A stretch of DNA of 51,074 nucleotides from Psammoneis japonica. Its lineage: Eukaryota. The notes below the pieces were generated by a model. It saw only the letters and a list, made by a program, of their open reading frames with translations, was not told the DNA's origin and ran no database searches. The position numbers were made by a program, and so were the translations under genes. This document shows, one piece after another, positions 4,614-51,074 of this stretch. Location: the NCBI GenBank assembly GCA_008632985.1, contig QPGO01000220.1:62001-113074 (forward strand), in the 5' to 3' direction. The first letter of the stretch is position 1. Each line of letters begins with the position of its first letter.

Positions 4614-4821
4614 AGGCAACTGTGATGGAGAGCAGCCTTGCTCAGCACCTCAGCTGGCAACAGCCTCCAATCCACACTCCTCAGCAACTTTGCTTTGAGC
4701 GTTTGTCTCATGGATGCAGGCAACTGTGATGGAGAGCAGCCTTGCTCAGCACCTCAGCTGGCAACAGCCTCCAATCCACACTCCTCAGCAACTTTGCTTT
4801 GAGTGTTTGTCTCATGGATGC
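4614..4821 (+). repeat. Tandem duplication, 2 x 104 bp
   Basis: AGGCAACTGTGATGGAGAGCAGCC...CTCATGGATGC at 4614-4717 and 4718-4821; one mismatch (GAGCGT vs GAGTGT). Confidence 0.95.
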
Positions 4822-10233: not shown

Positions 10234-10237
10234 TCTC

Positions 10238-10268
<31 letters not shown>

Positions 10269-10292: not shown

Positions 10293-11104
10293 TGCCTCTT
10301 CTCAATGACCCTGCTTGCTTTCATGAAAATGTGCTGTGCACTGCTGCAGCTGCTTGTGTGTGCATTGCTGCAGAGCTGGGGGAGAAGCGGCAGCGAGGGG
10401 CTCTTTCTCTCCAGGAGAAATGTTTTGCAGCAAAGCATCATCTGCAACACACTCTTGGTTGGTCTTATCTGCTCTTTCCATTTTGCGGCACTCCTCCTTG
10501 ATTGCTCCCCCTTGCACTGCTGTGTTGCAAGAAGAAGTGCGTTTCCAGCTTCGGCGCACAGCCAGTCACAGTGGTTGAAAGGCACAATCGAAGTGCATCT
10601 ATTACATTTTCATCAATGCTGGATAAATTTGTATCCATGACACTGGGGCAATGTCACCCCAACGTCACGTCATGATGACACACTCACACACTTCAACTTG
10701 GGTTTGTACTGAAGCTCCTGTAGAAAAAGCGAACCCTGATGACGTGGCTACATCTTCTGGAGACGGGTGGCTCTGAAAGCCCTTGCCACCCATCAAGGTT
10801 TAGTACAAGCTGCGTAGCATTCTACGGAATGAGGCCAGTCCCACACTTTTTGCGTAAATTCTACGTGGAAACATACCAGCCTTGCAGCAGCAAGCCATTC
10901 GAAAAAAAAATGATCACCGCCTCATCTCCAAAAACATCGCCAAGAGGGTGTGAAGAACGAAGCAACGCTTTCTGCTGTTACGCTTTTGGCCCTCGGGCAT
11001 CTCAATCACACAAACAAGACACTTTTTTTCACTTGACAAGCGGACGGTTGGTCCGTTCTGAAATAGCAGCGCAGTAGAGAAAATACAGCAGCAACAACGA
11101 AACT

Positions 11105-13534
11105 ATGAAGCTCACGACGGCAGCTCTTCTTCTCGTATTGTCGGCCCCATCGGCGGCAGCCTTTACTCCATCCAACTTCGGAGTTGTACGGCAGCAACAA
11201 CAGCAAAGACAAAATGGTTGGTCCCTTTCGAGTGCTATCGTGGACCGAGAGAACTTGGGGGTATCAACTACGCCGACAGATATTTCCAAGATTGTTCTAG
11301 AACAACAGCCACAGACTCCCTCTGTAACTCCTCAATCGACGCAGCAGGTGCAAGCTTCGACTCGATCCTATCTTTCTCAGTACGAGGGACAATCGGGTGC
11401 GGCCATTGTGTATTCCAAGTTGGAAGAATACGGCGTGACGGTGGTGAACGGCTATTCTGGAGGAGCCAATCTCCCCCTGTTGGATCAATTCCACCCGGAC
11501 CATCCGAGGCATGCTGCTGCCCATAAAGAGCCGATTCGTTGGATTACCAATTCCAACGAGAGTTCTGCTGGTCATATCGCCGAAGGATACGCCAAGAGCT
11601 TACCCGGAGAATTCCCCATTGGCGTCGCGATTGCGACATCCGGCCCGGGCGTGACGAATCTCATTACGCCCCTTCAGGACGCCATCTGTGACGGAGTTCC
11701 CATGTTGGTCATGTGTGGACAAGCCGCCACTACGGCTCCTCAGGACGCTTTTCAATCGGCACCTGCCGTAGACATGACGTCTCCCTGTACCAAGTGGAGT
11801 TACCAAATCAAGTCGGCAGCCGAAATCCCCATGGTGATGGATTACGCCTTTTTCGTCGCGACACACGGCAGACCGGGACCCGTCTTTGTGGATTTGCCCA
11901 AAGATTTGCAAAATCAAATTCTGACACCCGAGCTGATGGATTCTTTTACGGAACGGACCGTGTCGGAAGCCAATCAAATGGACGAAACGTCCTTTTGCCG
12001 TTTAATCACACAAGCCTTGCCTAATGGACAATCCACAAAGGCGATTCATCTGGGACACGCCAAGGAGGGATTACCCTTTTTCATTGCACCATCCCAAAAT
12101 GGCGCACTCCAAGTGACGGCGTTGCCAAGACCCAACAAGGTGACAGCCTATCACGCCGACCATCACACGTCCAACAAGGTTTTCAAGCAAGACTCGTCGA
12201 TTGTCAACACGAGGCGCGTTGCGCAACAGTCGATTGAAGCCGCCGTCGAGGCAACCGTCGGTGATTTGGCTCCCACGTCGCAGATTATGAAGGGAATGAA
12301 AAAGATCATTCGACAAGCCAAGAAACCCGTCATTATTGCCGGACAGGGTTGCAACGATTGTCCGGACGAATTGCGAGAGTTTGCTGAACGCTTAAATATT
12401 CCCGTCACGTCCACGTTGCACGCGTTAGGCAGTTTTGATGAACGACACCCCTTGGCGCTCAACATGATGGGTATGCACGGTCATCCGACACCCAACTTTT
12501 TGGTGCAAGAATCCGATTTGATTATTTGCATTGGATCGCGATTTGATGATCGCATCACGGGACGTCCATCCGACTTTGTTCCCGAAGCCAAGCGGGCCGC
12601 CCTGGAGGGGCGTGGTGGAATTATTCATGTCGATATTCGTCTTTCGGAGAGAGCCAAACAGGTGGAACCAACCTACTTTGTTCATTCTACAGGAAAGAAC
12701 TTTCTTCAAACCATGAATGAAGCCTTTGCCAATGACGATTTGATCAAACCGACGCAAACCCAGGCTTGGTTGGAACACATGACACAGCTGCAACACGAAT
12801 TTCCCGTCAAGGTTCCGAAATTCCCGACTCGCGACGTGACGGTCCAAGATCCCCAGACGGGTCACTCTCTGACGTTGCCGAAAACAACAATGTCGGCACA
12901 ACACGTGATTTCCACTCTCAACGCCCAGCTCTTGCAGGCGAACCAAATGGACAATGCCATTTTCTCGACGGGCGTGGGTATTCACCAAATGGTTGCCGCG
13001 CAGCTCATTACATGGACGCAACCACGACAAATGTTGAGCAGTGGTTCGTTGGGAACCATGGGTGTCGCCCTGGGGTATGCCATTGGCGCCAAGCTTGCCA
13101 ATGGAGGAAAAATTGTGATTGCCGTGGATGGCGATGGCAGCTTCAACATGACCTTTACCGAATTGAAAACCGTGGCGGAACAGAAAATACCCGTCAAGAT
13201 TATCATTTTGGACAATGAAGCCCAAATGATGGTGGAATACTGGCAACGCTTGTTCCACGACGAACGGTATTTGGCGGTGAGGAATGAAAAGAATCCCGAT
13301 TACGTCAAACTGGCGAGTGCGTTTGGAATCAAGAGTTTGTATTGCGATTGTGAAGAAGATCTCGAAGCAAAAATGCATGAATTTTTGTTTTCGGATCCCG
13401 ACGAGCCCGTCTTGTTTCATGTTCGTATCGAACGTACACCGTGCTTGCCGCTTGTGGCGCCCGGAGAAGCTCTGCAAGAAATGATTTTGGAAGACACGGA
13501 CTTTGATGTTGACCCCGGTGCGGCTCCGAGCTAA
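11105..13534 (+). CDS. ilvB: Acetolactate synthase (acetohydroxyacid synthase) large subunit, plastid-targeted
   Basis: 809-aa ORF with motifs GYSGGANLP, AEGYAK, ATSGPGVTN, RPGPVFVDLPKD, GSRFDDRITG, SSGSLGTMG and TPP-binding GDGSFNM...NE. N-terminal signal peptide followed by AAAFTP (ASAFAP-like). Confidence 0.95.
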   Translation: MKLTTAALLLVLSAPSAAAFTPSNFGVVRQQQQQRQNGWSLSSAIVDRENLGVSTTPTDISKIVLEQQPQTPSVTPQSTQQVQASTRSYLSQYEGQSGAAIVYSKLEEYGVTVVNGYSGGANLPLLDQFHPDHPRHAAAHKEPIRWITNSNESSAGHIAEGYAKSLPGEFPIGVAIATSGPGVTNLITPLQDAICDGVPMLVMCGQAATTAPQDAFQSAPAVDMTSPCTKWSYQIKSAAEIPMVMDYAFFVATHGRPGPVFVDLPKDLQNQILTPELMDSFTERTVSEANQMDETSFCRLITQALPNGQSTKAIHLGHAKEGLPFFIAPSQNGALQVTALPRPNKVTAYHADHHTSNKVFKQDSSIVNTRRVAQQSIEAAVEATVGDLAPTSQIMKGMKKIIRQAKKPVIIAGQGCNDCPDELREFAERLNIPVTSTLHALGSFDERHPLALNMMGMHGHPTPNFLVQESDLIICIGSRFDDRITGRPSDFVPEAKRAALEGRGGIIHVDIRLSERAKQVEPTYFVHSTGKNFLQTMNEAFANDDLIKPTQTQAWLEHMTQLQHEFPVKVPKFPTRDVTVQDPQTGHSLTLPKTTMSAQHVISTLNAQLLQANQMDNAIFSTGVGIHQMVAAQLITWTQPRQMLSSGSLGTMGVALGYAIGAKLANGGKIVIAVDGDGSFNMTFTELKTVAEQKIPVKIIILDNEAQMMVEYWQRLFHDERYLAVRNEKNPDYVKLASAFGIKSLYCDCEEDLEAKMHEFLFSDPDEPVLFHVRIERTPCLPLVAPGEALQEMILEDTDFDVDPGAAPS

Positions 13535-19668: not shown

Positions 19669-20076
19669 GGTTTGTTTTTGACTTCTCTTTTTTGACTCTC
19701 ATCAAAAAAGCAAAAAGATCGCGGATCGCGGGCGGCGGCAGACGCGCGAGAAGTTGCGCGATAAGCATGGGTGACTAAAGTCGATACGCAAGACTACAGG
19801 AGCGAAAAAAAACGCGCCGCAAACGACCAACACAACCATGATGTTGATGGTTTGAAATTTGAAACGTTTTGAAAAACGAATCGATACAGCACCCGTGCCA
19901 TTGCCACATGATTGCAAAACTTGCTTTTTCCACGGGAATGCCCCTTCTTCGAGGTTCGCACGGTACATGCTTTCTACGAGACTTTTGTACCAAAGACTGA
20001 TGAGATGCGCACCGAATCTCTTTCCTCGGTCGAGTCGTCATAATTTTCAGAATCGCTTCTCGTTCACAGGTCAACC

Positions 20077-21306
20077 ATGAAAGTTATTCATAGCATCCTC
20101 TTCTTCACGGCCGTTGTCTCTACCATGAGCACTGGTGCCGTCGCTAACCCTCTTCCTGCCTCGCTTGTCAACGCTGCAAAGCGCGGTGCAAGCTCGTTTG
20201 CGATCAAGGCGACCGAGACTATTGCAACGATTCGTAAAGACATCCAAGGCAAGTTTATGGCAGCGATCACTCCCGTGGATATCGAAAGCATCTCCAACGA
20301 TTACCACAATATCGTCAGCAACGCCGCTCCCAGCACTACGCCCTTTGATGAAACTCTCGTCGACTCGAGCTTCTGCGTTTCGTTTGACGACGCCGAGTCG
20401 CCCAACAGCTGGGTCCAACAACTCCTTCGTAACACTACGCCCACGATTGTACCAGTGGAATCTTCAAACACGTTTTGCGTCTATTTTGAGTATGACAATG
20501 ATGACTCCAACGCCGCCAGTCTCCCGCAAATCTTCCACAACAACACTCCGCTTCGAGAACGAACCGCATCGTCACTCAAGACCAGCACTTTCTTGGAAAT
20601 TGTTTGGGAAATCAAGTCGGAAATGGCATCAGACACGTTCAACACGGCTCTTTTGGATATCAAGTCAGGAATGCACCGTATTTGGAACCTTGTAGACGAC
20701 ATGTCGACACGCTTTGTCACGGAATTGCAGACTCAGGCGTCCGTTTTGCAAGTGCGCAATACGACTACGACGCTGCTTCAGAAATCAACTTTGTGGAAGC
20801 CCGATGACATCGAGTTCGGGCTGAACAATTGGTGGAAGAAAGTCGACAAAGTGTCAAAGTGGGTTCAGACTAGCGTTTTGCAAGGATTCAGGACGATTGA
20901 TGCGTCGTTTGGACGGAAAACCTTGTCGACGATCGGCGACTTTGGATTGAGGGAGCACAATTGGTGGAAGAGAATCCAAGACTTGTCGGAGTTGCTTCAA
21001 ACCAGCGTCTTGCAAGGATGCAAGGCGACTGGTATGTTGTTTCAGACGTCCACAAAGCCCGACGAAGTCGAGCCGACGCTTGACAGTTGGTCGAATAGAA
21101 TCAACGACGTACAGGCTACCGTCATGAAAGACATCAAGACGTTTTCGCGGCTTTTAGAACCCATTTCTGTGAAAGAGGTCATTGACAATTTGTGGAAAAG
21201 AGTAGACGACGTGTCCGAGCGGATTGAATCTGTTTTGGGCTTTTTACGAATCTCAACCCTACAAGTGGGAGAGAATGCAACCGAGACGTTAGTGAGTCTC
21301 GATTAG
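20077..21306 (+). CDS. Hypothetical secreted protein with repeated (N/S)xWK(K/R)VDD-like motifs
   Basis: 409-aa ORF with N-terminal signal peptide and normal dinucleotide content; internal repeats NNWWKKVDKVS, HNWWKRIQDLS, NLWKRVDDVS. Confidence 0.65.
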   Translation: MKVIHSILFFTAVVSTMSTGAVANPLPASLVNAAKRGASSFAIKATETIATIRKDIQGKFMAAITPVDIESISNDYHNIVSNAAPSTTPFDETLVDSSFCVSFDDAESPNSWVQQLLRNTTPTIVPVESSNTFCVYFEYDNDDSNAASLPQIFHNNTPLRERTASSLKTSTFLEIVWEIKSEMASDTFNTALLDIKSGMHRIWNLVDDMSTRFVTELQTQASVLQVRNTTTTLLQKSTLWKPDDIEFGLNNWWKKVDKVSKWVQTSVLQGFRTIDASFGRKTLSTIGDFGLREHNWWKRIQDLSELLQTSVLQGCKATGMLFQTSTKPDEVEPTLDSWSNRINDVQATVMKDIKTFSRLLEPISVKEVIDNLWKRVDDVSERIESVLGFLRISTLQVGENATETLVSLD

Positions 21307-21589: not shown

Positions 21590-22715
21590 GCAAGTCTTGA
21601 GAATGCCATCATCACAGCAGGGCTGAATCCCATGCCGGGCTTGATCATTGCCAACCTGGGTGCATGCACTCCAACCAAATGAAGCAGAAAGTCTGAAGCA
21701 AATAAACAGGCCCAGATGAATCAGCACAAAGTTGCTTCGAAAGCAGCAGTGTTGAATTGAACAATTACACAGTCCCATTGCAGAGGTCAGCACATCTGAA
21801 GAAGGGGCCCCAGCAGCTTGCTCAACAGACATCACAAGTCAAGTGCAAAGCCACACATGGCTGCCAGGTTGTCATTGGTGCTGACAATCTCAAGTGTGCT
21901 TGTTGATAGCATGGTTTTGCAAGTTTGCAAAGAGAGGAAAGCAAGCTTGATGACAAGTCCCTCTGAAGCTGATCACACGAAATGGAGAGCTGCACAAGTG
22001 CTCACTTGCTGTTTTGTGGTCAACAAAAGCTGAGCAAGACAAGTGCACTCCACTGGGCTGGCAATCAACAGAGTGCATCATTTCTCCTCCGCACCCTCAA
22101 CAAAGTCCAGCTTTTTTGATTTTTGGCAGCACCGCTTGTGTGACTTCCAGCTGGCTGGCTTTTTTGACTCAAACAATGTCCCTGTTGATCCTGTGTCATT
22201 GTTCCCCCCTTTGTTGTTCTGAGTGCCAGCACTGCCTCTGCCAAACCCAGAACAGTGTTCCTTGATGAGTCGGGAGATTGCGCCTGTGCAGCCAGTCAAA
22301 AAATGACTGAGCTCACAATCGTCGAAGATTTCCGAAAGAGCCTGGTGAAGGAAGTCATTGACATCTTGCATGGAAAGAACATGCCCCCCACTGTCAGAGA
22401 CAGTCAGTCCCTGAGAACACCCCTCAAGGCTTGCAGCATTGTGACAGCTTGGCTGGGCTTGCTGCCTGGTGCGGAGCCAGCAGAGCTCGTGATGCTGACG
22501 ATGATCTGCGGGCAGCAGGCCAGCAGGTGTTGCCGCTCCCTGTGCTCTCCCTCCCTGGACCCAACCCAACAACAGAATCAGAACATGGGTTTGGTGCCTG
22601 GGGAGGTGCTCATATATGGCTCCCAAATCAACAAGTGGATCCCGCAGGGACAAGGCGAAACTCACTGCAAGAACAATGATGCCACCGGTCTGATGATGCT
22701 GAGCAGACACCGGTA
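21590..22715. repeat. Small TpA/CpG-depleted island (degenerate repeat or gene fragment)
   Basis: About 1.1 kb with the same TG/CA-rich, TA-poor composition as 0.4-10.6 kb, between two normal genes. Confidence 0.6.
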
Positions 22716-22954
22716 GATGCGGAGCACTTCCAATTTGCGCTTAAACATCAAGTCTCGCGCTGGCCTCGCGCGAGAAAACAGGACCACTGCCGCCGACAGC
22801 CAACAGCCAACGACGACGAACGACGAACGACCTGTGAACGACGACCCCTCGAAATGGCATGAGCCATGTTGAAAGCGTTGCAACGCGGAAATTCTAGCAA
22901 CCAGAAGATCACTCGTACATAGTCCTTCACTACACAGGAGTGTTTTTACTTGTT

Positions 22955-37610: not shown

Positions 37611-37700
37611 ATGTACGCAAAAGTCGCACAAATAGCTATAGCACACATTCAGTAGAGAGCAAAACCTTGCTTGGACTCCGAAATGGAACTCAACTTTAAC
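37611..37700 (+). repeat. 90-bp dispersed direct repeat, copy 2
   Basis: ATGTACGCAAAAGTCGCACA...GGAACTCAACTTTAAC matches 31776-31865. Confidence 0.9.
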
Positions 37701-38638
37701 CTTCTGAAAAGATAGCCTTGAAAGCATACACGTAGAAACTGCTACCATCCCTTTGGGGCGTAATGTACCAGTACATCGCAGAAAAGTTCAAACCAAGAGG
37801 CAACCGCAAGAATACAAGAGCCACCACTTTGACAAGTTCGAGTACTCCGTATGCTGAATGCCACTTCTTTGAAGGCATGGAATCCTTGCGCTCATCCACA
37901 TCACGAGAAACCTTGTCGAGTTCTTTTTCTTGCTCCTTACTCAAGAGACCATCTTTCACGTCTGGCGGGAGACTTTGAAATCCCTCTACAATTCGTGCCT
38001 TGGCTCGCAGATAGAGGCGGGGAGCAACGAAGAGCGCTTCTCCCACCAGGCACGCGGTTGCAATGGTTAGAGCCGAAAAGCGTGGCCTCCATTTAAATCC
38101 ACTCGCTAGTAGCCGTGAGCACGAGAACCACAGAGCCGTGCACATGCCGAGTTCTGCGGATTGGAGCGCGGCAAACACGTGGCGACCCACATCGACGGCA
38201 ACATATTTGTTAAGAAACGGCGCTTTGAACTTGACCCAAGCTTCCATGAATGAAATAGCCAAGACAAAGGATGCCCACATTATCGCAATTCCAACTTGAA
38301 ACAGGCCCTGCTTTTCAGTCAACGTGGACACGGCCATCCCAACCAATGCATAGAATGCAAATATACCTCTCTCGTGGGGTCGCGAGACTAGTGACAAATA
38401 ATTTGCCTTGTGCTTTGATGAAACCTTCTCCTTCTTGCGCATATAGTGTAACGCCGGCGCGAGGACTGCTGGGGCGGACTTGTTGGGTTGAACCGGCCGC
38501 TTGTGGTTGTTGACGACGATTCCGTACTTGCACATTGTTTTGAGTCGAGAATGTCATGCCGTTGGTATACGCAGATGCCACGTTCAGGATAACAAAGATG
38601 AAGCTGATAAGCCTTGGCACTTTAAAATAAGATAGCAT
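37696..38638 (-). CDS. DUF4149-like small membrane protein, probably plastid-targeted (frame break about 38370)
   Basis: LAISFMEAWVKFKAP...DVGRHVFAAL..AE and WHSAYGVLELVKV resemble the bacterial DUF4149-type family. The upstream frame from ATG 38638 has a signal peptide + ASAY. Confidence 0.65.
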
Positions 38639-38762
38639 TGGCTTGGAGCAATACCATTCACGTTACTGTGTGAAAAAATGTTTCGCAGGTTGTTCAGTTC
38701 GTTGTGATCGTTGATCGCAATCAAGCACAGTCAAGGGCGAAAACGGAAAAGATCGAAGAAGT

Positions 38763-38924
38763 TGCAAGGTCTAACGAGATAAAGACTTTAGTGATAACAA
38801 AATTGTGAGCGAAAGACCGAGGTAACGAGGGTCGCTTTCAGCGAAGCCCGTTACAACGGCTTCCGTTATATCTAATAGATTCATTAATACTATATATCAG
38901 AAAAATAGGGTGCGAGACACTGCA
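38763..38924 (-). repeat. 3' LTR (retains 16 TpA)
   Basis: TGCAAGGTCTAACGAG...GAGACACTGCA, direct repeat of 43994-44155; adjacent to the PPT. Confidence 0.97.
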
Positions 38925-38936
38925 CTCTTCCCTTCC
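38925..38936 (-). other. Polypurine tract (GGAAGGGAAGAG)
   Basis: CTCTTCCCTTCC on the + strand, immediately internal to the 3' LTR. Confidence 0.9.
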
Positions 38937-39037
38937 ATGGTTCGAGTGTCGAGAATCATGCGGGACTCAAAAATTTTCAAATTCCAATGGATGAGGATAG
39001 AAGGGAAACCCAAATGTTGGGGAGAAAACCCTTAACC

Positions 39038-42000
39038 TCAGGTACGATACGGTACGACGCGACGAATATTCAATCGTTCTGTCACATGAGGTGCACGTTG
39101 GACCGTGATCGTACCGTTAGCGTGTACTTGAACGACAGGATGTGGACCGTGAGCTCGTGGTTCGAGCTTGGCAGGATCGACAGACTTGAGTAGAACGTGT
39201 CCACCAACTTGAAAATCGTAGGATCGGCGTTTAGCGTTGGCTCGACGGAGATTCGCATTAACAATCGCTTGTCGGTGTTCTTGAATGGCAGCAAGATCGG
39301 CTAGGACCGGCAAGTCAAGAATCATGTCACGTTGAAAAACCATGGCACCGGGTGAAATCTTGAGAGCACGAGAAACCGCACATCGCATTGCATGCATGGC
39401 GGTTGCCAATGCATTGTCCACTAGTTGATTAGCCTGCTCAACATTCTGTGGAGGATAAACATGAAGCAAAGTGCGCAAGACATTTCCAACAGTTTGATGC
39501 ATGCGCTCGCATGCCGCATTGGCTTGTGGATTTCGCGACGTAGTCGGAGCGTCTTCCACTCCCGCTTGTTGCAACAGCAATTGGAAGTCCTCTCCAACGA
39601 ATTCTCCACCATCATCATGGATACAACGGTCAGGACGAGGACAACGAGACAACCAACAATTTTCAAATTGTTGGGCAATGTGAGACGAGGTTTTGTTTTC
39701 GATGCGAATGAGTTCAGTCACATTCGAAACGGCGTCAATGCAAGTCAAAGCGTTGAATTCGGTTTCATGGTTTTGAATTTCAATCTTCCAGGGACCGATG
39801 AGATCAACCGCAACTTCCGTCCATGGCAACAAAGGCGCTTCTCGTTCAGGCAGGTCCCCACATCCAGGGCCCAAAGTTTTCAAACGTTGACAATCAGCAC
39901 AATGAAATCCTTCACAGGATTGACGAAGGGCAGGATGACAGAAATGTGCGCCAACAGTGGAATGCATTCGGTGCACTCCTGCATGTCCCAAAATTCTGTG
40001 ACACCATCGTATGATGTCATGCAGCAACGCCGTTGGAACACAAATTTTCCACGCAGTCGGAGGATCATTCGGTCGAGCACGACAACAAATTACAGGACGC
40101 TGATTCACACATTCCACCACGAAGCGTTCTGGATGTTGTTGTCGCATGTTGTTCAGCTCCACGTCGATGAATTGGTGTTCTTGAATTCATTGCACAGTTG
40201 CAGGGTTTTGCATTTTCCTCGAGAGAAGGACAGTTCAAAAATGATTCACACAATTCGGGGTCGTCCACGACGGAAGAGTAAAATGGAGATGGTTCTTCAC
40301 GACGATAGGAAAAATGAGACACACGGTTTTGGTCGTCCAGTTCTTCTTCATGCGGCAGCACAGCAAGGTCGATCGCCTTAAAATCAATCAGTTTGCCCTT
40401 GTCAGGAGCACACTTCCCTTCCGCAGGAGGGTCCATGCGCGGCAATCTTGAAAAACAATCCGCCAAGAGGTCATCTTTGCCATCAACGTATTCGAAAGTT
40501 GGGGCAAAATCTTCCAAGAAGAGTCGCCCCACCTAAGAACTCGTTGAGAATTGAGCGTGCGAAAGGTGAGATTTTTATGATCTGCAAAAACAGTGCAGTC
40601 AGCTCCGAATGACATGCTCCGAAATTCTTTGAAACACATCACCACCGCCAACAATTCCTTTTCAATCGTAGAGTAGTTCTGTTGTGCTGCGCTGAGTTTT
40701 CGGGACCAGCAAGCCACTGGTTTCCCGTCTTGCACAATTGCGGCTCCCATCTGATGGTCCGAAGAGTCAGTGTAAACATGGAATGGTTTGTTGTGATCCG
40801 GGTAGACCCAAAGGGTGTCATCCAGCATCAAGGTTTTCATGTCTTCAAAGGCTCGTTGACATTCAGGGGTCCATTCCAACTTGCTCTTGCCTGTTAACTT
40901 CGTGAGTGGAGCGAGCACGTGTGAGTGACGAGGCCACATGTTGCGACAATGAGTTGCCGCACCGATGAACGATCGTAGTTGCGTCACAGTTTTAGGTGGT
41001 TGCATTCGCAGCACCGCTTCCACTTTCTTCTTCCATGGTCGGACTCCTGCAGGCGTGAGCCAATGGCCTAAAAAATCCGTCTCTTGGACACACCATTCGC
41101 ACTTGAGTGGGTTAATTTTCAGGTTGTTCTCTTCTAGTCTGGATGACAGCTCATTGAGTCGATGCATGTGAACATCAAACGAATCATCAAAAATTGAGCA
41201 ATGTCATCGATGTAAGTTTCAACATCAATTCCGTTTGCCACTTTTTCAATGATGGCTTGAGCAATGTCGGGAGAGGGTTTCAAACCCATGGCCAATCGAC
41301 AGCATCGAAATTTTCCAAACGGAGTGACGATGGCACACAAATCCTTGGATTCTTCGTCAAGTTCGATGTGACAATAAAACACAGTGAGGTCCAATTTGGT
41401 CAAGTGCTTGTGTCCCGAGCGTCGGTGAATGACGTCTTGAATGATCGGCAGAGGATGGACCTTTCGCTTGAGCACCTTGTTCAACTCTCGAAAATCGGAT
41501 GCCCATCGAACTCGTCCATCCTTTTTGGGAGTTGCAAAAGTTCCGGCTGCCCATTCAGTTGGTCCCACTGGTTCCAGTGCGCCAACATCACACAAATGCT
41601 GCAGTTCTTTCTTAAAAACGGCTTCATCCCTCTTGGACACCTCATGAGCCTTAGAATGGAAGGGGACAGCGTTGGGATCAACTTCCAAGTGAACAGTCTC
41701 ATGCGGACATTTGCCAAGCGTTCCATCAAAGAGGGTTTCATGCTTTTCAAGCACTGCCTGTAGCTCATCACGTTGTTCTTGAGTCAAGTGAGTTTGAGCT
41801 TGCGCCACTTTCGCGGATGACACTTTCTCGCATTTGGCGTCCATCATAAAAGATTGTCCGAAGGCTTCCTCATCGTCTTCGTCCCTCTCCGTCGTCTTCC
41901 AGTGTATCCAACCAATTCTGAACTGAGTTCCAATGATTGGATTGCTTCATTGGGATCGACATTCCCAACCACTTTGTCACTCCAAATCGAAAATCAAGCA

Positions 42001-42538
42001 CGATTCCGGCCTTCGACAAAAAGTCTTGTCCCAAAATTATGTCATGCTTGCATGGGGCATCAAAAACTTGAGCCGCAATGCTGTCGACTTGTTTTGACTT
42101 GTCAAATTCTGGCAATGTCAAGTCCTTCACAATGACGTGTTGGGAGGATTCATGTCGTCCGGCTGCCGTCTGAAAGCTCAACCGTCCTTCATCGTTCATG
42201 GTCGGATTCGCTCCCTTCGGCAAAACTCGAGAATGAACAAGAGTGTCAGCACCTCCTGAATCCAATGACACGCGCGACACTCGCTTGCTCTCTTGATTTT
42301 GAATGGCACGCGCCGCCATCAACGTCGTTGGCACCACATTCAATGGTTTGGGAGTCGCAGTTTTAGGGGTTGGTGCAGCGCACTCCAAAACGCCGCCCAA
42401 TTTTTCTTCATTCACAGCATGAGATTCCATCAGGTCTCCCACATTGTCATCAACATTAAAACATGTGTTTTCTTCACAATCACACGAAACATAAAAAGAT
42501 TGAGCGACACGCTCTGACTCGGGCGCTTCCGTCCCTTG
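39038..42538 (-). pseudogene. pol: pol: aspartic protease, reverse transcriptase, RNase H, integrase (several frameshifts)
   Basis: [55 protein letters not shown]...[21 protein letters not shown] zinc finger, VAVDLIGP, IHDDGGEF, NPQANAACERMH, and GPH (GPY module). Confidence 0.95.
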
Positions 42539-43760
42539 TCAATTACGCCAACTTCGTTGGCCTTGATGGGTGCGACCATTCTGATCGCATCCATTTCCAC
42601 CTCGCATCTCACGAGGCCCTCCTTGATCAAAATGGTGCGACTCCATTTGCCAGTCACCAGGAGGAGCTGCTCCAGCCGGATTTCCATGGCCTTGGGTGTC
42701 ACCGTTGGCTTGGGTGCCGTTTTGATTTTGACAATGGGATCCATTCCCTTGAGAATTCTGGGAGTCATTACAATTGCCGTAACCTCGGCCTCCATGTCCT
42801 CCTTGATTGCCACAATTGCCACGTCCTCGACCTTGGAAGTTGCCACGACCGCCTCGACCTTGGGGTCCTCTGCCTTGGCAGTTTCCTCGGCCTCCACCAC
42901 GGCCTCCGCCACAACCGCCACGGTCGGACCTCGGCCGACAGTTTTGGCTTTCTGGATTCAAAATGCAATCCTTCCACTTGTGGTCGTGATTCGCATGCAC
43001 CGGGCATCTAGATTCTGGATCCGTTCCACCACTGTTGCCACGAGAGCGTCTTGAAGCTTGAGACGAAGCACTGTTGCCTTTCCTCTTCTTGTCCTGCTTC
43101 TTGTTGCTGCTCTTGTCAGCAAAAGATTTCTCATTGTTCACACAACCAATGATCTCAGCGAGAGTGTCGTTCGCTGTCGCTCGTCCTGCTCGAGTGTGCA
43201 TCTCACGCCACGGACGAGGGAAGCCATCGAACATCATCTTTTTCTTCTGAGCTTCGTTGACTTGAGGAGCATTTCCCGGAAGTTTGTTGGAGCACCGAAT
43301 CAAGGTTTCCATGCGATCCGCATGCGCCTGCACTTCAGATTTGAATGGTTTTTTCAAAGTTGGCAAACATTCAATCATCGCATCACGCGCTTCATTGTCA
43401 CAATGAGACAAGTAAAAACGATTGATTTCCTGATCAAAACGCTCGACAGTTTTATCGGCATCATCAATTGCATTGGTCAAATTCGCCCATTTGTCCTCTG
43501 CCGCATCCGCAAGCACTTCCTCGAAATTTTCGAACAACTCCTCGCCAGCAGCACACTCCAGTTTCACAGCAATTTTACGAAAACGATCCTCAACGAATGA
43601 CAATGCTTCAACACCATGAGTGCCATCAAAACGCGGACACTTTTTTGTACGAGTGCTGCCGTCATCACACGATTGGGTCAATTTCACGTCCTCCAAGTCA
43701 GAATGCTCAAATTTAGCTTCGTGGCTGATGCAAGGCTCCTTCAACGATTCACTCATCATG
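42539..43760 (-). pseudogene. gag: gag with CHHC zinc knuckle and Gly/Arg-rich tail
   Basis: CPVHANHDHKWKDC, basic KKQDKKRK and RGG repeats; located between the 5' LTR and pol. Confidence 0.85.
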
Positions 43761-43993
43761 AAAAAGGGAATGCAATTGTTCAATGGTCCTTTCCAGGGAC
43801 TCTGCCTTTGACTCCAAATGATGCACTCGGCTCGCCAAATTCTGCTCGTGTCGTTTGCACTGTTGCACTTGTTTCTGGTGCTCAATGGCCCAAACTGCTG
43901 CTCTTGCACGCAGTTCTCTTTTCTCACGTTCAGTCAATTTGTTTGCATTGTTCCCAGTCTCCATCCAGTTCTTTGAATCGACTGTAATTACAG

Positions 43994-44155
43994 TGCAAGG
44001 TCTAACGAGATAAAGACTTTGGTGATGACAAAATTGTGAGCGAAAGACCGAGGTGACGAGGGTCGCTTTCAGCGAAGCCCGTTACAACGGCTTCCGTTAC
44101 ATCCAATAGATTCATTGACACTGCATGTCAGAAAAATAGGGTGCGAGACACTGCA
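43994..44155 (-). repeat. 5' LTR (10 of 16 TpA converted)
   Basis: Direct repeat of 38763-38924 with 10 transitions, followed by TSD GAAGT. Confidence 0.97.
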
Positions 44156-44203
44156 GAAGTCACCCCAAGCTACCGGCGTGCGCAGATGGACACCGATGCC
44201 ACG

Positions 44204-44511
44204 AATTGCTGAACAATTGCGCGACACACGTGCCCGAAGGGTGATTGTTGCTTCGGGCACGAAATTCGAGCTTCGCGCACGTAGAGACCGTAGAAAACAT
44301 GCCAGCATTCGAGAATGTCCGATTTGTGTAGATCACACAGCACAGCACCACAGAGGTCATTGATGAAATTACTGCAACGACTCATGCGACTACAATGAGA
44401 TTTTCAACACCACACACTGTGTAGAATGGACATCTGCGCGAAGGAAGAATGTTGCTTCGGGCAACGACATTCGACCTTCGGGCATGTGTATCGCGCAATT
44501 GTTTTGCAATT
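44204..44511. repeat. Inverted repeat (about 37-bp arms) with internal direct repeats
   Basis: AATTGCTGAACAATTGCGCGACACACGTGCCCGAAGG (44204-44240) vs CCTTCGGGCATGTGTATCGCGCAATTGTTTTGCAATT (44475-44511). Confidence 0.8.
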
Positions 44512-44669
44512 TGTAGCAGCGCAGATGGACACTCAAAAGGTCATTTTGGGCGTTTGACCTTCGTGCGAGTCATCCGAGAGCACGCGCCGAAAACAACACA
44601 CAAAACGAAGCGAAAGAAAAGAACGATCTCGGATGAATGCAAAAGCTCTTCATTGCCACAACAAAAAAC

Positions 44670-45290
44670 ATGACCAAAACAGATGGTGATGCCACCATTA
44701 GAAGGTCTACAAAAGACAAATCACTTGAAACTCAGCTTCGCAATGCCGACCTCGCACAAGCCACCCGTCAACAGCAAGTCATTTTGAGAGATGCCAGGCA
44801 AATTCTCGACGACAGAAACAGCACTGCACGTGACTTGAAAAAGGCCAGCAACTGTCTGAAAATTGTTTGTGAAACACTCTCTATTGTTGAAAAAGCTGCT
44901 GTTGAATCAAATGCTGTTTGCAAAAGAATCCAAGATGCCGGGTGTTCCGCGTGCGCATCGAAGGCTCGCGGCTTCGGAGAATTGGAGCCAACGTCTCTGC
45001 CAAGTCCCAACAACAGGGAAGACAAAGAAAATGTCCCATCACCAGCAGCTTCCAGAAAGGCCAATGAACTCATTGAGCTGGAGCTGCTTGCCTTGTGCAT
45101 CAAGACGCCACCTCCTGGCGATCGCAAACTCTCGAAAAAACGAAAAGGGGACACGAAAAATTCAAACGAGTCAACTCAAAAGAAGAAGTCAAATGCAACA
45201 GCAAGATCCAAAAAGTGGCGGCGGGCATGTCACGTCGTGGTCCGTCATGCTGCACACATGGATCTTTTCGACATCGCACTGCTCGCCAAC
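44670..45290 (+). pseudogene. TpA-eroded coding sequence for a coiled-coil/basic protein, upstream of the RNase H copy
   Basis: Protein-like open frame (MTKTDGDATIRRS...KKRKGDTKNS) with no Tyr and almost no TpA. Confidence 0.4.
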
Positions 45291-46690
45291 GAACGTTCCA
45301 CATGCGAGATCTTGAGTGCAACTCCTGCGGCAACGGCTGCGAAGCGTGCGGTGACACTCCAGATGTCACTTTTTGTCATGGATCGCGATGGTCGTTCGTT
45401 GGATTTCGCCTTTGGTTGCTGTTCATCACACCCCACGTCTCAAACACATGCTCCACGTCAAGGTGCTGTGCTTGTTCACACGCCACACGCTTCTCATCTG
45501 CATCTCTGTTGTCATTTTCCTCTGTCGACTCTGTTCAACAACGAGGACTGCATCGCAACCTTTCTGTTCATTGCCTTTTCGTGTTGCAGACTTTTGCACT
45601 TTATGCTCCAAATGGGATGCTGTCACACTTTGATCCTTCGATTTGATGGTGTCTGTCGTGGCAGGAGCAGGGACTCGGGAAGTGGATGGGTGCTTCTGGA
45701 CGGAAAGAACAGCAAGGTGGTTGCCAAAGGTCGACACCACATTGGAGCGGAAGCCACCAACAATGTTGCGGAGTGCATGGGTGTTTTGGGTGGATTGATG
45801 TTCATTCGCAATGAAGGCATTCAGATTCACAACATGCTGCACGTCCAGGGAGATTCGGAGCTGGTCATCAATCAGTTGAAGGGTGAATGCCAAGTGCGTT
45901 CCCCACGTCTAAGACCGCTCTACAACCACTGTCAAAAGATGCTGTGTGACTTTGACTTTGTGGTGGACTTCAAGCACATTCACCATGATCACAACACGCA
46001 CACTGACAAGCTGGCCAACCAAGCTGTTGATTGGCAGGAAAGTTCTGCCGAGTGGTTGTGAGCTGCAAATTCAACCGGCCAGAGCAGGCAGGGGAGACGG
46101 GGGAAAGCATGTGTTTGTGACCAAGTGCCACCAAAACATCACAGCAGTGGCAGAAATGGTTGTTGTGGGACAATTAGAAGAACTCTTTGCTTTCAGTGCA
46201 CAATGACTTCTAGAAGAAATCGATGTCCAATGATTTTTAGCACATTCACCGGGAGCGCAACAGCGTCGCCGACTGTTTGACCAATGAAGCCATTGATGAT
46301 GAGACTGGTTCTCCCAAGTGGTGTTGCTGCAACAGCAGTAAAAAATCACAGGCACAACTGATCGACTGTCGACAACAAAGAATGACAGAGAGTGGTCAGG
46401 TGTGAGCTGTCGTCATTCGATGCTTTGGTGCACATGCCATGGCAAAACACTGCAACATGCCGACATCATCGACCAGCTCATTCTCGTGCCCTTCAACTTT
46501 GCATTGTGTTCCAAACTTTGAGCATGCCCATCCCAGAACCAAAGCTCACTCATGTCTTCAAACTCCGAAACACAAGTTCCCCGACTCTTTTAGTTTGACA
46601 GCTGGAAGCACAGACATTCACAGGCACTTGCTGCTTGCACTGCTGAAAATGAAATGAGAAAGCCGAGAGACGTCCTAAAGAATCACATTG
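45291..46690 (+). pseudogene. Hypermutated copy of a roughly 1.4-kb segment containing an RNase H gene (RNase H domain 45612-46061)
   Basis: Aligns with 49246-50612; RFDG.CRG, TNNVAEC, VQGDSELVI and KHIHHDHN carry Tyr->Cys/His and Arg->His changes. Confidence 0.9.
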
Positions 46691-46699
46691 CGCCCAACA

Positions 46700-48120
46700 C
46701 ATGGAAAGTTTTTCTTGTGGAAGTGAATGAGGTTCTTGTGGCCAACTTCAAAAGGTGCTCCTTGTTCTTTTTGGTCACTGGTGCCATCACTTGCACACCC
46801 AGCTTCTTGGCCCTTGTCACTCCACTGCTCAGCACTGACCCCAGCCACCCCAGTGGTGCATTTCCAGGGCTCTTTGTCCTGAGAAGCAAGATTTCTAAAG
46901 CCATGATGCCTGCCAATTGGAAGCAGCCTGCACTGGTGTGCAGCTGGGCCTGCTCTGCACCCAGCTGCCCCAAGGTGTGATGCAGCAAGTTGCCAGCACA
47001 GAGAACCCCAAAGCAAATCACTGTGATGGCTTGCACCTCACAGCAACTGTCATGCCAGTGCACGCACCTGAGTGTGAATTCCAGTTGCAATGTCAGAATG
47101 GCACAATGCCACCACACTGCCAATGAAGTGTGCTGAGCAGCACGTTTGCTGGGGGCAGCTCTCCAGTGTGGTTGGAACGAAGTTCGAGATGGAGGAGGGC
47201 TCTTTCAACATCCCACCAGTTTTCTCAAAGTCACAGTCAAAGGCTTGTTGGACAATGGCTGTTTGGAGTGGAAGCACTTTTGTGAAGCCCAGCTGTGTGG
47301 CTGCTCATTTTCAGCTTGGAGACCCCTGAATTCGGTGCACCTGAACCTTTTCTTGCTAAGCTGTTGTTTGATGGTCAAAGCAGCAATGCTGGCAATGATT
47401 TCAAAAGCAAGGGAGGCAACAACAATGCAGAAGACAAGAAAGGTGGTTACAACAACAAGATGCACTGCTTTTTTCTTCATTGTGCTGCAGCTTGCTCCGG
47501 GTGCTGAAGCGGTCAATCTGCGATCATGCTCCACATTTCAGTGCAAGGCAAGCCAGTGGGAGGGCCGCCACAAGGCCATCCATGGTCTGTCCACTGTGCA
47601 GATTTTGGCTGACAACCTGCCAGAAGTTTGTTTTCCATGCGGTCAGGACATGTGAAGCTGGGACAGCAAGAGCTTCAAAAAGAAACCAGAGCAGCCTCGA
47701 CAGCAGCAACAAAACAGCAACAATCTGCTGCTGACATCACACCTTCATTGTCATTGCTGCCAACACAACAGCACTCCAAACTGCAGCACAATGCCAGTTC
47801 CACCATCTCAGCCATGACAGCAAATTTGCGACAACCATCTTCACTGGGAGCGCCGCTGGCACCCCCCTCCAAAAGACAGCGGCCAGGGCAAGAAAAAGAG
47901 GAGGGCCTGTGGTGGCAGCTGACAAACTGCCACTGGCATCCACATCACTTCTCGCTGCAGCAGGAGCAGTGGCACCTGCTGCCTCTGCACCGTCTTTCCA
48001 ACAGCACAGCCACATTGTCAACGCGGTGCAGCAATTGCACGGCACATGGGGGAGCTCTGTGGTTCGAGGAGAGAAAAGTGGGGGTGGCTTTTTGCTTTTT
48101 GTTCAATTTTTGGCTTTGGT
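46700..48120. repeat. TpA/CpG-depleted degenerate sequence
   Basis: Same TG/CA-rich composition as 0.4-10.6 kb; normal composition resumes at about 48140. Confidence 0.6.
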
Positions 48121-48307
48121 GGACAGATGAGCAGACCATACGGTACAAGGCATCTTCTATCCTATCAATCAACATCACCAAGCACAATAAAACGATTGAA
48201 ACCCAAAACGAAGCCGTCTTACTTGATGCTGTCTTCTATCTCATCCTTAAAACTAACACAACCTAACACAACAACAGCATCATACCCTCAACAGCAAACC
48301 AATCAAC

Positions 48308-49206
48308 ATGACAGTCTGTTGGGCCAAAAGATCTTGGGACAGCGGCATCTTTGACAATGGCATGGCGTGGGCATCGCTCGAAAGAAAGCACAGCGATGAT
48401 GCTGTTGCCTCGAAACAACTAAAGACCATTATAAACATTCCAGGTGGACCTGGCAATCCCGCTCCCAGCACTGGATGGGGCGGCAAGGTGGAAATGGGAC
48501 TCCTGCTACCTTTGCTAGAAAAAGGAACGGGTTTTGGAAAGATTATTACCATTGCTCGCAAACGCAACATGCCACTAGGACATACAGTGGCAGATGTTGC
48601 CAAGGATTATGCGGATTGTATTGCGGAAAATGTGGAGGAAGGCAAAGCGGATTTAATGTTGGGGTATCCTATGGTGGTATGATTGGTCAATACCTAGCAG
48701 CCAATCATGCCGACTGCTTTGAGCATATCGTCATCGTGGTGGCGGCCTACGCAGTTGAACCAAAAGGCGCAGCCATAGACTATGCCTTTGCCCAAAAGAT
48801 GAGTGAAGGCAAGCCATTTGCCGCTGGAAAGGAGATATCCAAGGCCATCTTCCCCACTTGGCCTTCATTCCTGGCAGGACTAACCGGTGGCATTATGATG
48901 AAAATGATGTACGGCACTCATGCTCCTCATGAATATGCCGCTTCCGATGTCATGGTCGAAGCCGAGGCAGAAAAGGCCATGGACGCTCGCGATGTTCTTC
49001 TCAAGATCAAGGTCCCAGTTCTACTCATTGCAGGGGAGAAGGATGCATATTTCCCCGTTGAATATACCAATGAAACGGTAGAGCTTATCCCAGATTGTAC
49101 ATTGAAAATGTACGAGGGCAAGGGGCACTTGGATGTTGCCATGGACAAGCAGAGAGTCAGCGCCGACATATTGGAATTCATCAAGGCCCATGAGGCAAAG
49201 TCATGA
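48308..49206 (+). CDS. Alpha/beta-hydrolase (frameshift at the GGGG run about 48661)
   Basis: IPGGPG oxyanion region, nucleophile elbow GVSYGG, IKVPVLLIAGEKD and YEGKGH. Confidence 0.85.
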
Positions 49207-49549
49207 TGGAATCAGAATGGCGGGTTGCATTTCGTTCTCGACCACGAACTTTCTACACGCGAGATCTCAGTACAATTCCTACGACAACGGCTACAAAACG
49301 TGACATCTCCGATCTCTTGGATCTAAAAACCTCGCCCCTCTCGTTGTTGTTCATCACAACCAACACGACCACGTCTCAAACACGGTCCACGCTCCACGTC
49401 AAGAAGATAATGTACTTGTACACGCTACACGCTTCTCATCTGCTTCTCCGTTGTCATTTTCCTCTGTCGACTCTATTCAACAACGAGGACTACATCGCAT
49501 TTCTTTTCTTAACCTTCGTGTTGCAGACTTTACTCCTTTACTCCAAATA

Positions 49550-49999
49550 ATGGTGTACTATCACACTGTGATCCTTCGATTTGATGGTGCCTGTCGTGGC
49601 CGCGACAGGGTCTCGGGAAGTGGATGGGTGCTCCTGGACGGAACGACGGGCAAGGTGGTCGCTAAAGGTCGCTACTACATTGGAACGTACGCCACAAACA
49701 ACGTTGCAGAGTACATGGGCGTTTTGCATGGATTGAAGTTCATTCGCGACGAAGGCATTCAGATTCGCAACACTCTACAAGTCGAGGGAGATTCGGAATT
49801 GGTCATTAAGCACTTGAAGGGTGATTACCAAGTTCGTTCCGCACGTCTAAGACCGCTCTACAGGCGTTGTCGAAAAATGCTTGATGACTTTAATTTTGAC
49901 TCGGACTTTGAGCACATTTACCGTGATCGTAACCAGTTCGCGGACGAGCTGGCCAAGGAAGCCATTGATTGGGGAGAAAGTTCTGCCGAGTGGTCGTGA
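49550..49999 (+). CDS. RNase HI (RNase_HI_like / RVT_3 family), intact copy; may have an upstream exon (acceptor TTGCAG about 49526)
   Basis: LRFDGACRG...GSG, TNNVAEY, VEGDSELVI, HIYRDRNQFADELA carry the acidic catalytic residues. Confidence 0.88.
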   Translation: MVYYHTVILRFDGACRGRDRVSGSGWVLLDGTTGKVVAKGRYYIGTYATNNVAEYMGVLHGLKFIRDEGIQIRNTLQVEGDSELVIKHLKGDYQVRSARLRPLYRRCRKMLDDFNFDSDFEHIYRDRNQFADELAKEAIDWGESSAEWS

Positions 50000-51074
50000 A
50001 GCAACATTCAACCTGCCGGAGAAGGCAGGGGAGACGGGGGAAGCACGTGGGTTTATCACCAATAGCTGTAAAGACATCATATTAGTAGTAAAATAGTTGT
50101 TGGGGGATACCGTTAATTAGAAGACCTCTTTGCTTTCAGTGCTAGCGACTCCTCGAAGACACGTTTGCCGAGATCACAACAGTGCCGCCGACTGTTGGGC
50201 AAATGCAGTCATCGATGACGAGACTAGTTTTTCCGAGTGGTATTGCTGCAATAGCAGTAAAAAATCATGGGTACAACCGATCGACTATTGACAACAAAGA
50301 ACGAAAGAGCGTGGTCAGACAAAAGTTGTCGACATTCGACGCTTTGGTACTTTGGTGTAGTCTACATAGCAAAACAGTGCTTCACGCCGATAACGTCGGC
50401 CAGCTCACACTCGTCCCCTGCATCTTTGTATTGTGTGCCAAACTTTGAGTATGTCCATCCCGAAACCAATACTTATTCATATGATATCTTCAAACTCCGG
50501 ATACAGGAGCCCCGTCTCGTTCTAGTTTTACAGCTGTAGAAGCACAGACAGGTGCTTGCTGTTGCTGGCAATGAACTGAGAAAGCCAAGAGACGTCCGAA
50601 AGAATCGCATTGTGAGAAAATATTGAAGTTCAGCTCTTCCTAACACATACTGCAGGGGGGATTTGGATGGAATTCTCTCCAATCACGCCGATCTGCCATC
50701 ATCTTGAGTTGTGCTTTGGTGTCAAAGATAGGAAGATTGAAGATGATCAATGATCAAGCAGGATCAAAGAGGTCTATGACCATTGATCATGGGTGTGTGT
50801 GCTGTCCGAACGAAAATTGGAAAAAACAAAAAGGTAAAAAAAAAAAGTGGGCTGTCGAAATGGCGTTCTGGCGTCGTTCGCCGTCGGCGCCGTCGTGGGT
50901 ACAGTTAGTACGCAACAGGCCGAAAAGTAGAGCAGCCATAGACAAAAGAGATTGGCATCTTTCAACCATTCTCATAAAGGATTCGCTCGATAGTAATGCG
51001 CCCATCGCTGAAAACGACTCTACTCTCATGGCAGATGTGTCCTCCACTCAAGGAGAGCCGACAGACGACATCGA

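Follow-up and report, generated by a model that had tools for sequence, protein, structure and literature searches.

A stretch of 51,074 nt from the diatom Psammoneis japonica (contig QPGO01000220.1, positions 62,001 to 113,074), hereafter called the window, contains three domains from which the dinucleotide TpA has almost vanished (~0.75-10.25 kb, 21.75-22.5 kb and 39.25-48 kb). The third of these takes in most of a Ty3/Gypsy retrotransposon, adjoining repeats and one of two RNase H paralogues, and the two long terminal repeats (LTRs) of the retrotransposon, one at the domain edge and one inside, differ only where TpA has become TpG or CpA. The process acts on chromosomal DNA after integration, within sharp-edged domains and to near saturation, and its pace far exceeds that of ordinary substitution and of CpG decay. 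We consider a TpA-to-TpG/CpA hypermutation of domain DNA, acting after integration and set by location, the probable explanation, with deamination and chromatin targeting as its inferred steps. The diatom case thereby joins a recently described TpA-only DNA hypermutation which, going by the available text of a preprint, has so far been reported from one study of one unrelated alga, Bigelowiella natans (Mettrop et al., bioRxiv 10.64898/2026.01.13.699255). The same signature at saturation in a diatom suggests a wider eukaryotic genome defence, with a role like that of repeat-induced point mutation (RIP) and the opposite chemistry.

The LTR pair of the Gypsy element

The retrotransposon lies on the minus strand at 38763-44155. 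It has two 162-bp LTRs of the TG...CA type, a target-site duplication of 5 bp without mismatch (gaagt, at 38758-38762 on the left and 44156-44160 on the right) and Pfam domains in the order protease, reverse transcriptase, RNase H and integrase, which identifies it as Ty3/Gypsy. Its interior (38925-43993, minus strand), in which gag precedes these domains, is broken by frameshifts at several places. The 3' LTR (38763-38924, minus strand) is the outer one at the domain edge and is unmutated, with 16 TA and 10 CpG. In the 5' LTR (43994-44155, minus strand), which lies inside the domain, 10 of the 16 TA now read TG (6) or CA (4). These 10 sites are the only differences in a pair that is 94% identical, and none of the 10 CpG has been lost from either copy. 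The probability that all 10 differences fall at TA positions by chance is 2.5e-8. As LTRs are identical at integration and these now differ, the editing must have hit chromosomal DNA after integration, and in a position-dependent manner. The ratio of 10 of 16 TA changed to no change outside TA gives a rate bound only, but the change in the LTR pair is TpA-only and far faster than both other substitutions and CpG decay.

The loss is graded across the domain edge. From the outer LTR inward, successive 250-bp bins hold 17, 11, 5, 2 and 0 TA, and the interior is TA-poor from ~39250 on while CpG is retained. For the interior as a whole the observed/expected ratio (o/e) of TA is 0.15 and that of CpG 0.93. 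The coding consequences are visible in the proteins of the element, where tyrosine makes up 0.4-1.1% of residues compared with 1.7-2.8% in host genes. At 4 positions the window has His or Cys where the relatives L001-L006 have Tyr, and 3 Tyr are kept. These comparisons support TA loss as the direction of change, as do the related metagenomic Gypsy loci, all seven of which have TA o/e 0.45-0.71, and site 44021 in the inner LTR, where the whole X1 contig depth has TA.

Since the best-defined target in the window is a retrotransposon, editing at the RNA level has to be weighed. ADAR converts A to I on double-stranded RNA and APOBEC3 converts C to U on cDNA, and both act before integration. Double-stranded transcripts of the retroelement could in principle have been A-to-I edited prior to reverse transcription, and, according to the available text of the preprint, enzymes of the ADAR type prefer a U on the 5' side of the A they edit (bioRxiv 10.64898/2026.01.13.699255). 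However, reverse transcription makes the two LTRs identical, yet 10 TA sites differ between them, and the edge of the edited region is graded within the element. Single-copy DNA that is not retroelement is edited as well, as is the gene paralogue together with its non-coding flanks. The matching target-site duplication argues against an element whose LTRs were recombined from different elements. RNA editing is therefore very improbable, and pre-integration editing of the ADAR or APOBEC type is excluded by the LTR result.

Extent of the domains and their copy number

The domain edges are 250-750 bp wide when composition is followed in 250-bp bins. The most saturated domain, 751-10250, has 16 TA in 9.5 kb (TA o/e 0.02, CpG o/e 0.12), and CA and TG are raised to o/e 1.90 and 1.78. 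The small island between two genes at 21751-22500 has 2 TA in 750 bp (TA o/e 0.04, CpG o/e 0.23). Within the third domain, the high-copy repeat that adjoins the inner LTR (44156-45290) has a TA o/e of 0.17 and a CpG o/e of 1.05, and the stretch at its right end (46691-48000) has 0.04 and 0.20. The genes of the window have TA o/e 0.50-0.52 and CpG o/e 1.03-1.09.

To judge copy number we used contigs of two runs (X1 and X2) from one sample, placed on 38000-51074 at 80% likeness; the summed depth of these contigs is not equal to copy number. Summed depth is ~58 over the genes, 2018-3430 over the Gypsy interior, 4468 at 44104-44539, 418-621 at 44540-45411 and 58.6-82 at 45412-48899. The Gypsy element and the adjoining repeat are matched by many other contigs, and 45.4-48 kb by none. 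Thus ~2.6 kb of TA-free DNA (45412-48000) stand in this sample at the same single-copy contig depth as the flanking genes, including the edited RNase H segment (58.6-82 at 45412-46719) and 46691-48000 (58.6). The targets in the window are the Gypsy element, repeats, a host-gene paralogue and DNA without a recognised family, and the single-copy stretch suggests that targets need not be repeated DNA.

These depths bear on a homology trigger as in RIP, in which repeats would be recognised by pairing or small RNAs and mutated at TpA, with leakage into single-copy neighbours. In ascomycete fungi, RIP changes CpA to TpA, which creates an excess of TpA and new stop codons; it is triggered by duplication and usually affects both copies. 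A trigger of this kind would fit the summed depth of 418-4468 over the Gypsy element and 44156-45411 compared with ~58 in the flanks, and the hypermutated single-copy DNA lies within ~2.6 kb of such high-copy repeats. Moreover, some diatoms encode a DNMT4 that may group with the fungal RIP protein RID, with function given as unknown in the available text of that study (PMC9998398). On the other hand, the outer LTR and the ~300 bp of interior next to it have been left untouched although they belong to a high-copy element, and TpA is destroyed here rather than made. In the 0.75-10.25 kb domain, any repeats, whether within it or shared with the rest of the window, are short, and a comparison of the TA-free domains with each other within the window likewise revealed no similarity other than short internal repeats. 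The target described in the available B. natans text is also single-copy (bioRxiv 10.64898/2026.01.13.699255). We therefore regard a RIP-like trigger as unlikely.

The contigs also bear on whether the domains are a sequencing or assembly artefact, in which modified bases in heterochromatin would have been miscalled. One 3830-nt X1 contig covers 45622-49450 and departs from the window at 7 positions. Three of these are TG/CA in the window where the contig has CG, one is CG to TG, one is TA to CA at 46896 and two are of other kinds. Methylation can cause errors of the CG-to-TG/CA type in long-read base-calling, and the three window TG/CA sites are what such miscalling would leave. Nonetheless, the same contig shows the same TA-free, CpG-poor state, other copies of the repeat family read TA at the same places, and the conversion is complete rather than partial. 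We give an artefact a very small chance. The CpG versus TpG/CpA differences to X1 at 46458, 46468, 46782 and 48022 may reflect CpG decay that is still under way and visible as polymorphism, or base-calling differences linked to methylation.

Among 40 listed differences between the window and the two runs, beyond which there are 751 further ones, 11, among them LTR site 44021 at full depth, have CA/TG in the window and TA in the run, and 3 have the reverse. In 44156-45290 the window reads CA/TG where contigs read TA at 10 listed places, mostly with the majority of the depth.

The RNase H paralogue pair

The sequence-only reading of this DNA had taken 49246-50612 and 45291-46690 as an intact and an eroded copy of one RNase H segment. 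Their paralogy is borne out by a pairwise alignment (A1; 49150-50700 against 45200-46780), in which ~1.4 kb are paralogous and 1252 aligned columns were compared, and by matches of both to Pfam RVT_3 (PF13456, curated cut-off 21.6 bits). The normal segment (49246-50612, plus strand) has 63 TA, TA o/e 0.67 and CpG o/e 1.11, and its RNase H coding sequence (CDS) at 49550-49999 (plus strand) lies in a frame, 49451-49999, that matches with E 3.6e-24 and 85.5 bits. The hypermutated segment (45291-46690, plus strand) has 9 TA, TA o/e 0.10 and CpG o/e 0.63. Its CDS at 45612-46061 (plus strand) aligns gap-free to the normal CDS, with start and stop at equivalent positions, and the match falls in the open reading frame (ORF) 44637-46061 with E 4.1e-19 and 69.2 bits. 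Only the copy inside the TA-free domain is hit, as had been proposed. All the quoted example changes are present as well, both the coding ones (TACTAT->TGCTGT, GRYYIG->GRHHIG, NVAEY->NVAEC, GDYQV->GECQV and HIYRDRN->HIHHDHN) and the non-coding ones (CTAC->CCAC and CTATT->CTGTT).

The fate of dinucleotides in the pair is one-sided. At the 53 aligned TA of the normal copy, the eroded copy reads CA 20 times, TG 17 times, TA 6 times and something else 10 times, with no CG, whereas none of the 8 aligned TA of the eroded copy stands opposite CA or TG in the normal copy. CpG has been lost to TG or CA at 30 of 75 normal-copy sites, compared with 6 of 42 in the reverse direction. The expected asymmetry thus held up (37:0 for TpA, 30:6 for CpG). 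The direction is fixed by the outgroup proteins (P0001-P0009): Y88 and R158 are invariant in all 9 sequences set against the eroded copy (8 outgroups and the normal copy), and the eroded copy has C and H in their place. Within the CDS, 12 of 15 TA have become TG or CA, similar to the flanks.

The predicted enrichment at TpA was also found. Changes of A to G number 18 after T, compared with 7 after A, 8 after C and 9 after G, and changes of T to C number 22 before A, compared with 6-11 before other bases. The changes are TpA-specific, with no other A-to-G or T-to-C context raised. This spectrum speaks to error-prone repair synthesis by a polymerase eta-like enzyme in methylated heterochromatin. 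Polymerase eta makes A-to-G errors at WA motifs, A:T to G:C changes preceded by a T belong to its spectrum, and CpG decay in the older domains would supply T:G mismatches for such repair. However, the AA context is not raised, as the 7 changes after A versus 8 and 9 after C and G show. TA disappeared from the Gypsy interior and the inner LTR without CpG loss (10 of 10 CpG kept in the inner LTR), so no deamination trigger is visible there, and removal of at least 97% of TA is hard to achieve by occasional repair patches. Such repair synthesis is accordingly quite improbable as the source of the domains.

The CA (20) and TG (17) outcomes are interleaved at random (19 runs versus 19.3 expected), and the runs test revealed no strand-coordinated clustering of TpA changes in the pair. 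Equal and randomly interleaved outcomes argue against one processive single-strand event and against editing of one RNA strand. A trinucleotide rule for strand choice (TAY over TAR) was unsupported in a hand count of the RNase H pair, with 7 TG and 5 CA at YTAY and 3 TG and 4 CA at RTAR.

Although the pair looks like a natural control, it is a noisy one. The alignment holds 274 differences over the 1252 columns, of which 112 (~9% of columns) are transversions, and the flanks of the CDS have 16 gap events in 880 columns. On account of these transversions and flank gaps the duplication is old, and by the same counts most of the differences are ordinary divergence. The dS between the copies is ~0.2-0.3, and their divergence is 13-19% once changes of the hypermutation type are removed.

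This matters for the claim that location, and not homology pairing, determines which copy is hit. In Neurospora, RIP requires an identity of about 80% or higher across stretches of hundreds of bases. With paralogues 13-19% apart, a RIP-like search need not have recognised them as duplicates, so the RNase H pair is a weak test of a homology trigger. The part of the claim that concerns location stands on better evidence, namely the LTR pair and the single-copy stretch, and the earlier interpretation is therefore partly supported.

The further statement that the process kills gene duplicates was overstated. The 450-nt RNase H CDS has no gap in either copy and no internal stop in the eroded one, and the acidic catalytic residues D45, E87, D114 and D165 are present in both. 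Among 29 strongly conserved columns, 3 are changed in the eroded copy and none in the normal copy. As TAA and TAG are removed and no new stop is made, any damage to the RNase H is missense; missense changes are in fact all that is seen in the hypermutated copy, whose frame stays open. From the clean CDS, the catalytic residues and the counts of copy-unique changes with three outgroups (25 vs 15, 17 vs 14 and 13 vs 9) it follows that the 45-kb copy evolved as a gene does over much of its past and was edited late.

The hypermutated RNase H domain forms the end of a 474-codon open frame (44637-46061, plus strand). The 325 codons upstream of the domain (44637-45611) contain no stop in the RNase H frame, compared with 6-11 in the other five frames. 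A search for a homologue of these N-terminal 325 aa gave one match among 8000 scored candidates, and this match is confined to the RNase H part. A 2-nt insertion at 44914 is present in most other copies of the repeat upstream of the hypermutated RNase H. The upstream frame may be chance, a relic of an ORF encoded by the repeat, or a real fusion.

Each segment also carries a partial second copy of the RNase H C-terminus ~250 bp downstream (49904-49969/50151-50216 and 45966-46031/46232-46297; 67-74% identity, family D4). As both segments have it, this small tandem duplication predates the segmental duplication. Furthermore, in one X1 contig at single-copy depth (57), 46111 is linked to 50074 across 25 letters of other sequence; the contig may come from a third RNase H paralogue or from a haplotype that has recombined.

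Two layers of loss

Loss of TpA and loss of CpG differ in extent, and CpG decay is a separate and narrower layer. The two are separated by the Gypsy interior, where a TA o/e of 0.15 goes with a CpG o/e of 0.93. CpG loss is confined to the older parts, i.e., 0.75-10.25 kb and ~46-48 kb. Along the eroded RNase H copy, CpG loss per 300-bp bin runs 2/10, 6/15, 10/14, 10/19 and 2/4. The sequence-only reading had it increasing toward the 3' end, which holds only in part.

Of the 32 TA that survive in the two stretches with the strongest saturation, 751-10250 and 44501-48000, 29 are preceded by a pyrimidine and 23 are followed by a purine, compared with 42% and 38% for the TA of normal DNA (n=865). 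The survivors, which are mostly YTAR, may mark the context in which the process is slowest, or may be TA that arose recently.

As TpA loss makes no stop codons, long open frames appear. TAA and TAG together occur 1.4 times per kb and strand in 1-10 kb, compared with 12.8 in genes. A Pfam search with 64 stop-to-stop ORFs of at least 90 aa from 0.4-10.7, 44.0-45.4 and 46.6-48.3 kb gave no family above the curated cut-off (0/64). The lack of a recognisable protein family in the ORFs of 0.4-10.7 and 46.6-48.3 kb is what one would see if the domains were foreign or specially selected DNA that inherently avoids TA and CG. Yet the domains include a host-gene paralogue and a Gypsy element, the relatives and sister copies of which have normal TA, and the differences to these are polarised. 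Judged from these comparisons, the foreign-DNA reading is contradicted for 39.25-46.7 kb, and for the domains together we find it hardly credible.

Proposed mechanism

A coherent account of these results is that TpA hypermutation targets transposon-rich, presumably silenced regions, together with single-copy DNA that is caught inside them. The change is a transition of A:T to G:C that hits an adenine directly after a thymine, and it occurs on both strands. It might come about when a deaminase with a 5'-T preference converts adenine in DNA to hypoxanthine, and targeting would be through chromatin state; both steps are proposed for the B. natans signature in the available preprint text (bioRxiv 10.64898/2026.01.13.699255). 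The decay of CpG to TpG/CpA forms a second, slower layer, as expected from 5-methylcytosine (5mC) on diatom transposons. In this account the RNase H copy at 45.3-46.7 kb, an old paralogue whose reading frame stayed clean through most of its past, was edited as a bystander inside the domain, and the copy 4 kb away lies outside and was spared.

Several observations weigh against this account. High-copy repeats are present inside the third domain, and a homology-triggered start followed by spreading may be possible. All seven related metagenomic Gypsy loci have TA o/e 0.45-0.71, compared with 0.15 for the window element, so that depletion is seen in 0 of 7 and is not general for this Gypsy family. 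The RNase H comparison is confounded by old divergence. The polarity of the LTR differences rests on one listed outgroup site, 44021 in the inner LTR, where all X1 contig depth reads the TA state, and on analogy with the other comparisons. Finally, X1 and X2 may be the source data of the assembly, in which case their agreement with the window is not fully independent.

More tentatively, and with somewhat less than even confidence, diatoms and chlorarachniophytes might share a chromatin-guided, adenine-editing defence of DNA. It would mark newly silenced insertions quickly, well before 5mC decay becomes visible, and spread from a few hundred bases to a few kb, with YTAR as the slowest substrate. 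If so, the defence could retire host genes, and the erased TAA and TAG would leave long false reading frames. LTR pairs that straddle domain edges would then provide a built-in, genome-wide read-out of its rate and reach.

Comparison with known systems

In the available text of the B. natans study, mutation-accumulation lines show A-to-G and T-to-C changes at TpA only, on both strands, ~1000-fold above background and in some lines only. The targets there are single-copy integrated giant-virus and virophage DNA, with a TpA ratio of 0.45 in the viral region, and TpA-depleted genes are enriched in reverse-transcriptase and DDE domains. The long-term signature is loss of TpA with gain of CpA and TpG, for which an ADAT2-like DNA adenine deaminase is proposed (bioRxiv 10.64898/2026.01.13.699255). 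The window shares with this system the change from TpA to TpG/CpA only, on both strands, in discrete regions and with single-copy targets, and the lasting deficit of TpA with a surplus of CpA and TpG.

The differences, as far as that text allows a comparison, are several. B. natans is a chlorarachniophyte and thus a rhizarian, whereas the present host is a diatom, a stramenopile. The defined targets in the window comprise an LTR retrotransposon, further repeats and adjoining host DNA with a gene paralogue in it. TA o/e here is 0.02-0.17, i.e., near total loss, compared with 0.45 for the viral region, and a separate layer of CpG decay is present in the window. Lastly, mutation was observed de novo in B. 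natans and is here inferred from sequence. A full-text literature search found no report of TpA hypermutation in diatoms; the supplements of the B. natans preprint may list further targets.

RIP resembles the process in the window in being a dinucleotide-specific transition hypermutation that ruins transposons, may damage nearby genes and leaves a strong dinucleotide skew. In contrast to RIP, TpA is lost here, CpA and TpG are gained, and TAA and TAG are removed; outgroup-polarised changes did not run in the RIP direction. Only one of two once-identical LTRs and one of two paralogues are hit. Animal deaminases of the ADAR/APOBEC3 kind likewise carry out context-dependent editing against selfish elements, and the 5' U/T preference of ADAR is a further likeness. 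Unlike theirs, the edits here are made post-integration in chromosomal DNA and reach DNA outside the element.

Methylation of diatom transposons accounts for part of the pattern. In Phaeodactylum, transposon 5mC depends on DNMT5a, as the available text of that work describes, and CpG decay from 5mC explains the CpG layer at 0.75-10.25 and ~46-48 kb (PMC9998398). It does not explain the loss of TpA, since the Gypsy interior and the inner LTR kept their CpG.

The signature has practical consequences. From the sequence of a single LTR pair it can be read that edits are post-integration, set by position and outrun CpG decay. Gene finders will call long false genes in edited DNA without TAA and TAG, and the change of Tyr codons to His and Cys codons hides transposon proteins from homology searches. 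Dating by LTR divergence will be strongly distorted in genomes of this kind. For base-editing research, a natural enzyme acting on adenine at TpA in duplex DNA would be of interest.

Other features of the window

The acetolactate synthase gene at 11078-13534 has its best matches in raphid pennate diatoms at 60-68% identity (Bacillariaceae, Mayamaea, Cylindrotheca, Phaeodactylum and Nitzschia), and the search gave no near-identical entry. The other genes recognised by Pfam have long uninterrupted frames and encode ELP1, SNF2, an amino-acid kinase, RimM and an AdoHcy-hydrolase-like protein. The ORFs 22078-22740 (in the small island), 37696-38553 and 50704-51072 gave no Pfam match, and ORF 20044-21306 gave only TFIID-18kDa at 16.6 bits, under the 27-bit cut-off.

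A repeat pair at 31770-31865/37605-37700, 5.8 kb apart in DNA of normal composition, was considered as the LTRs of a control element and rejected, as it is a 96-nt direct repeat of 90% identity without LTR-like extent. At the peak summed depth of 4468, the unit at 44194-44521 (~330 bp, with 55-nt inverted ends of 82% identity) looks like a high-copy element similar to a miniature inverted-repeat transposable element (MITE), and the Gypsy element is inserted directly beside it. Inside the saturated domain, 4614-4821 consists of two tandem 104-nt units with 99% identity, a recent duplication, younger than most of the editing.

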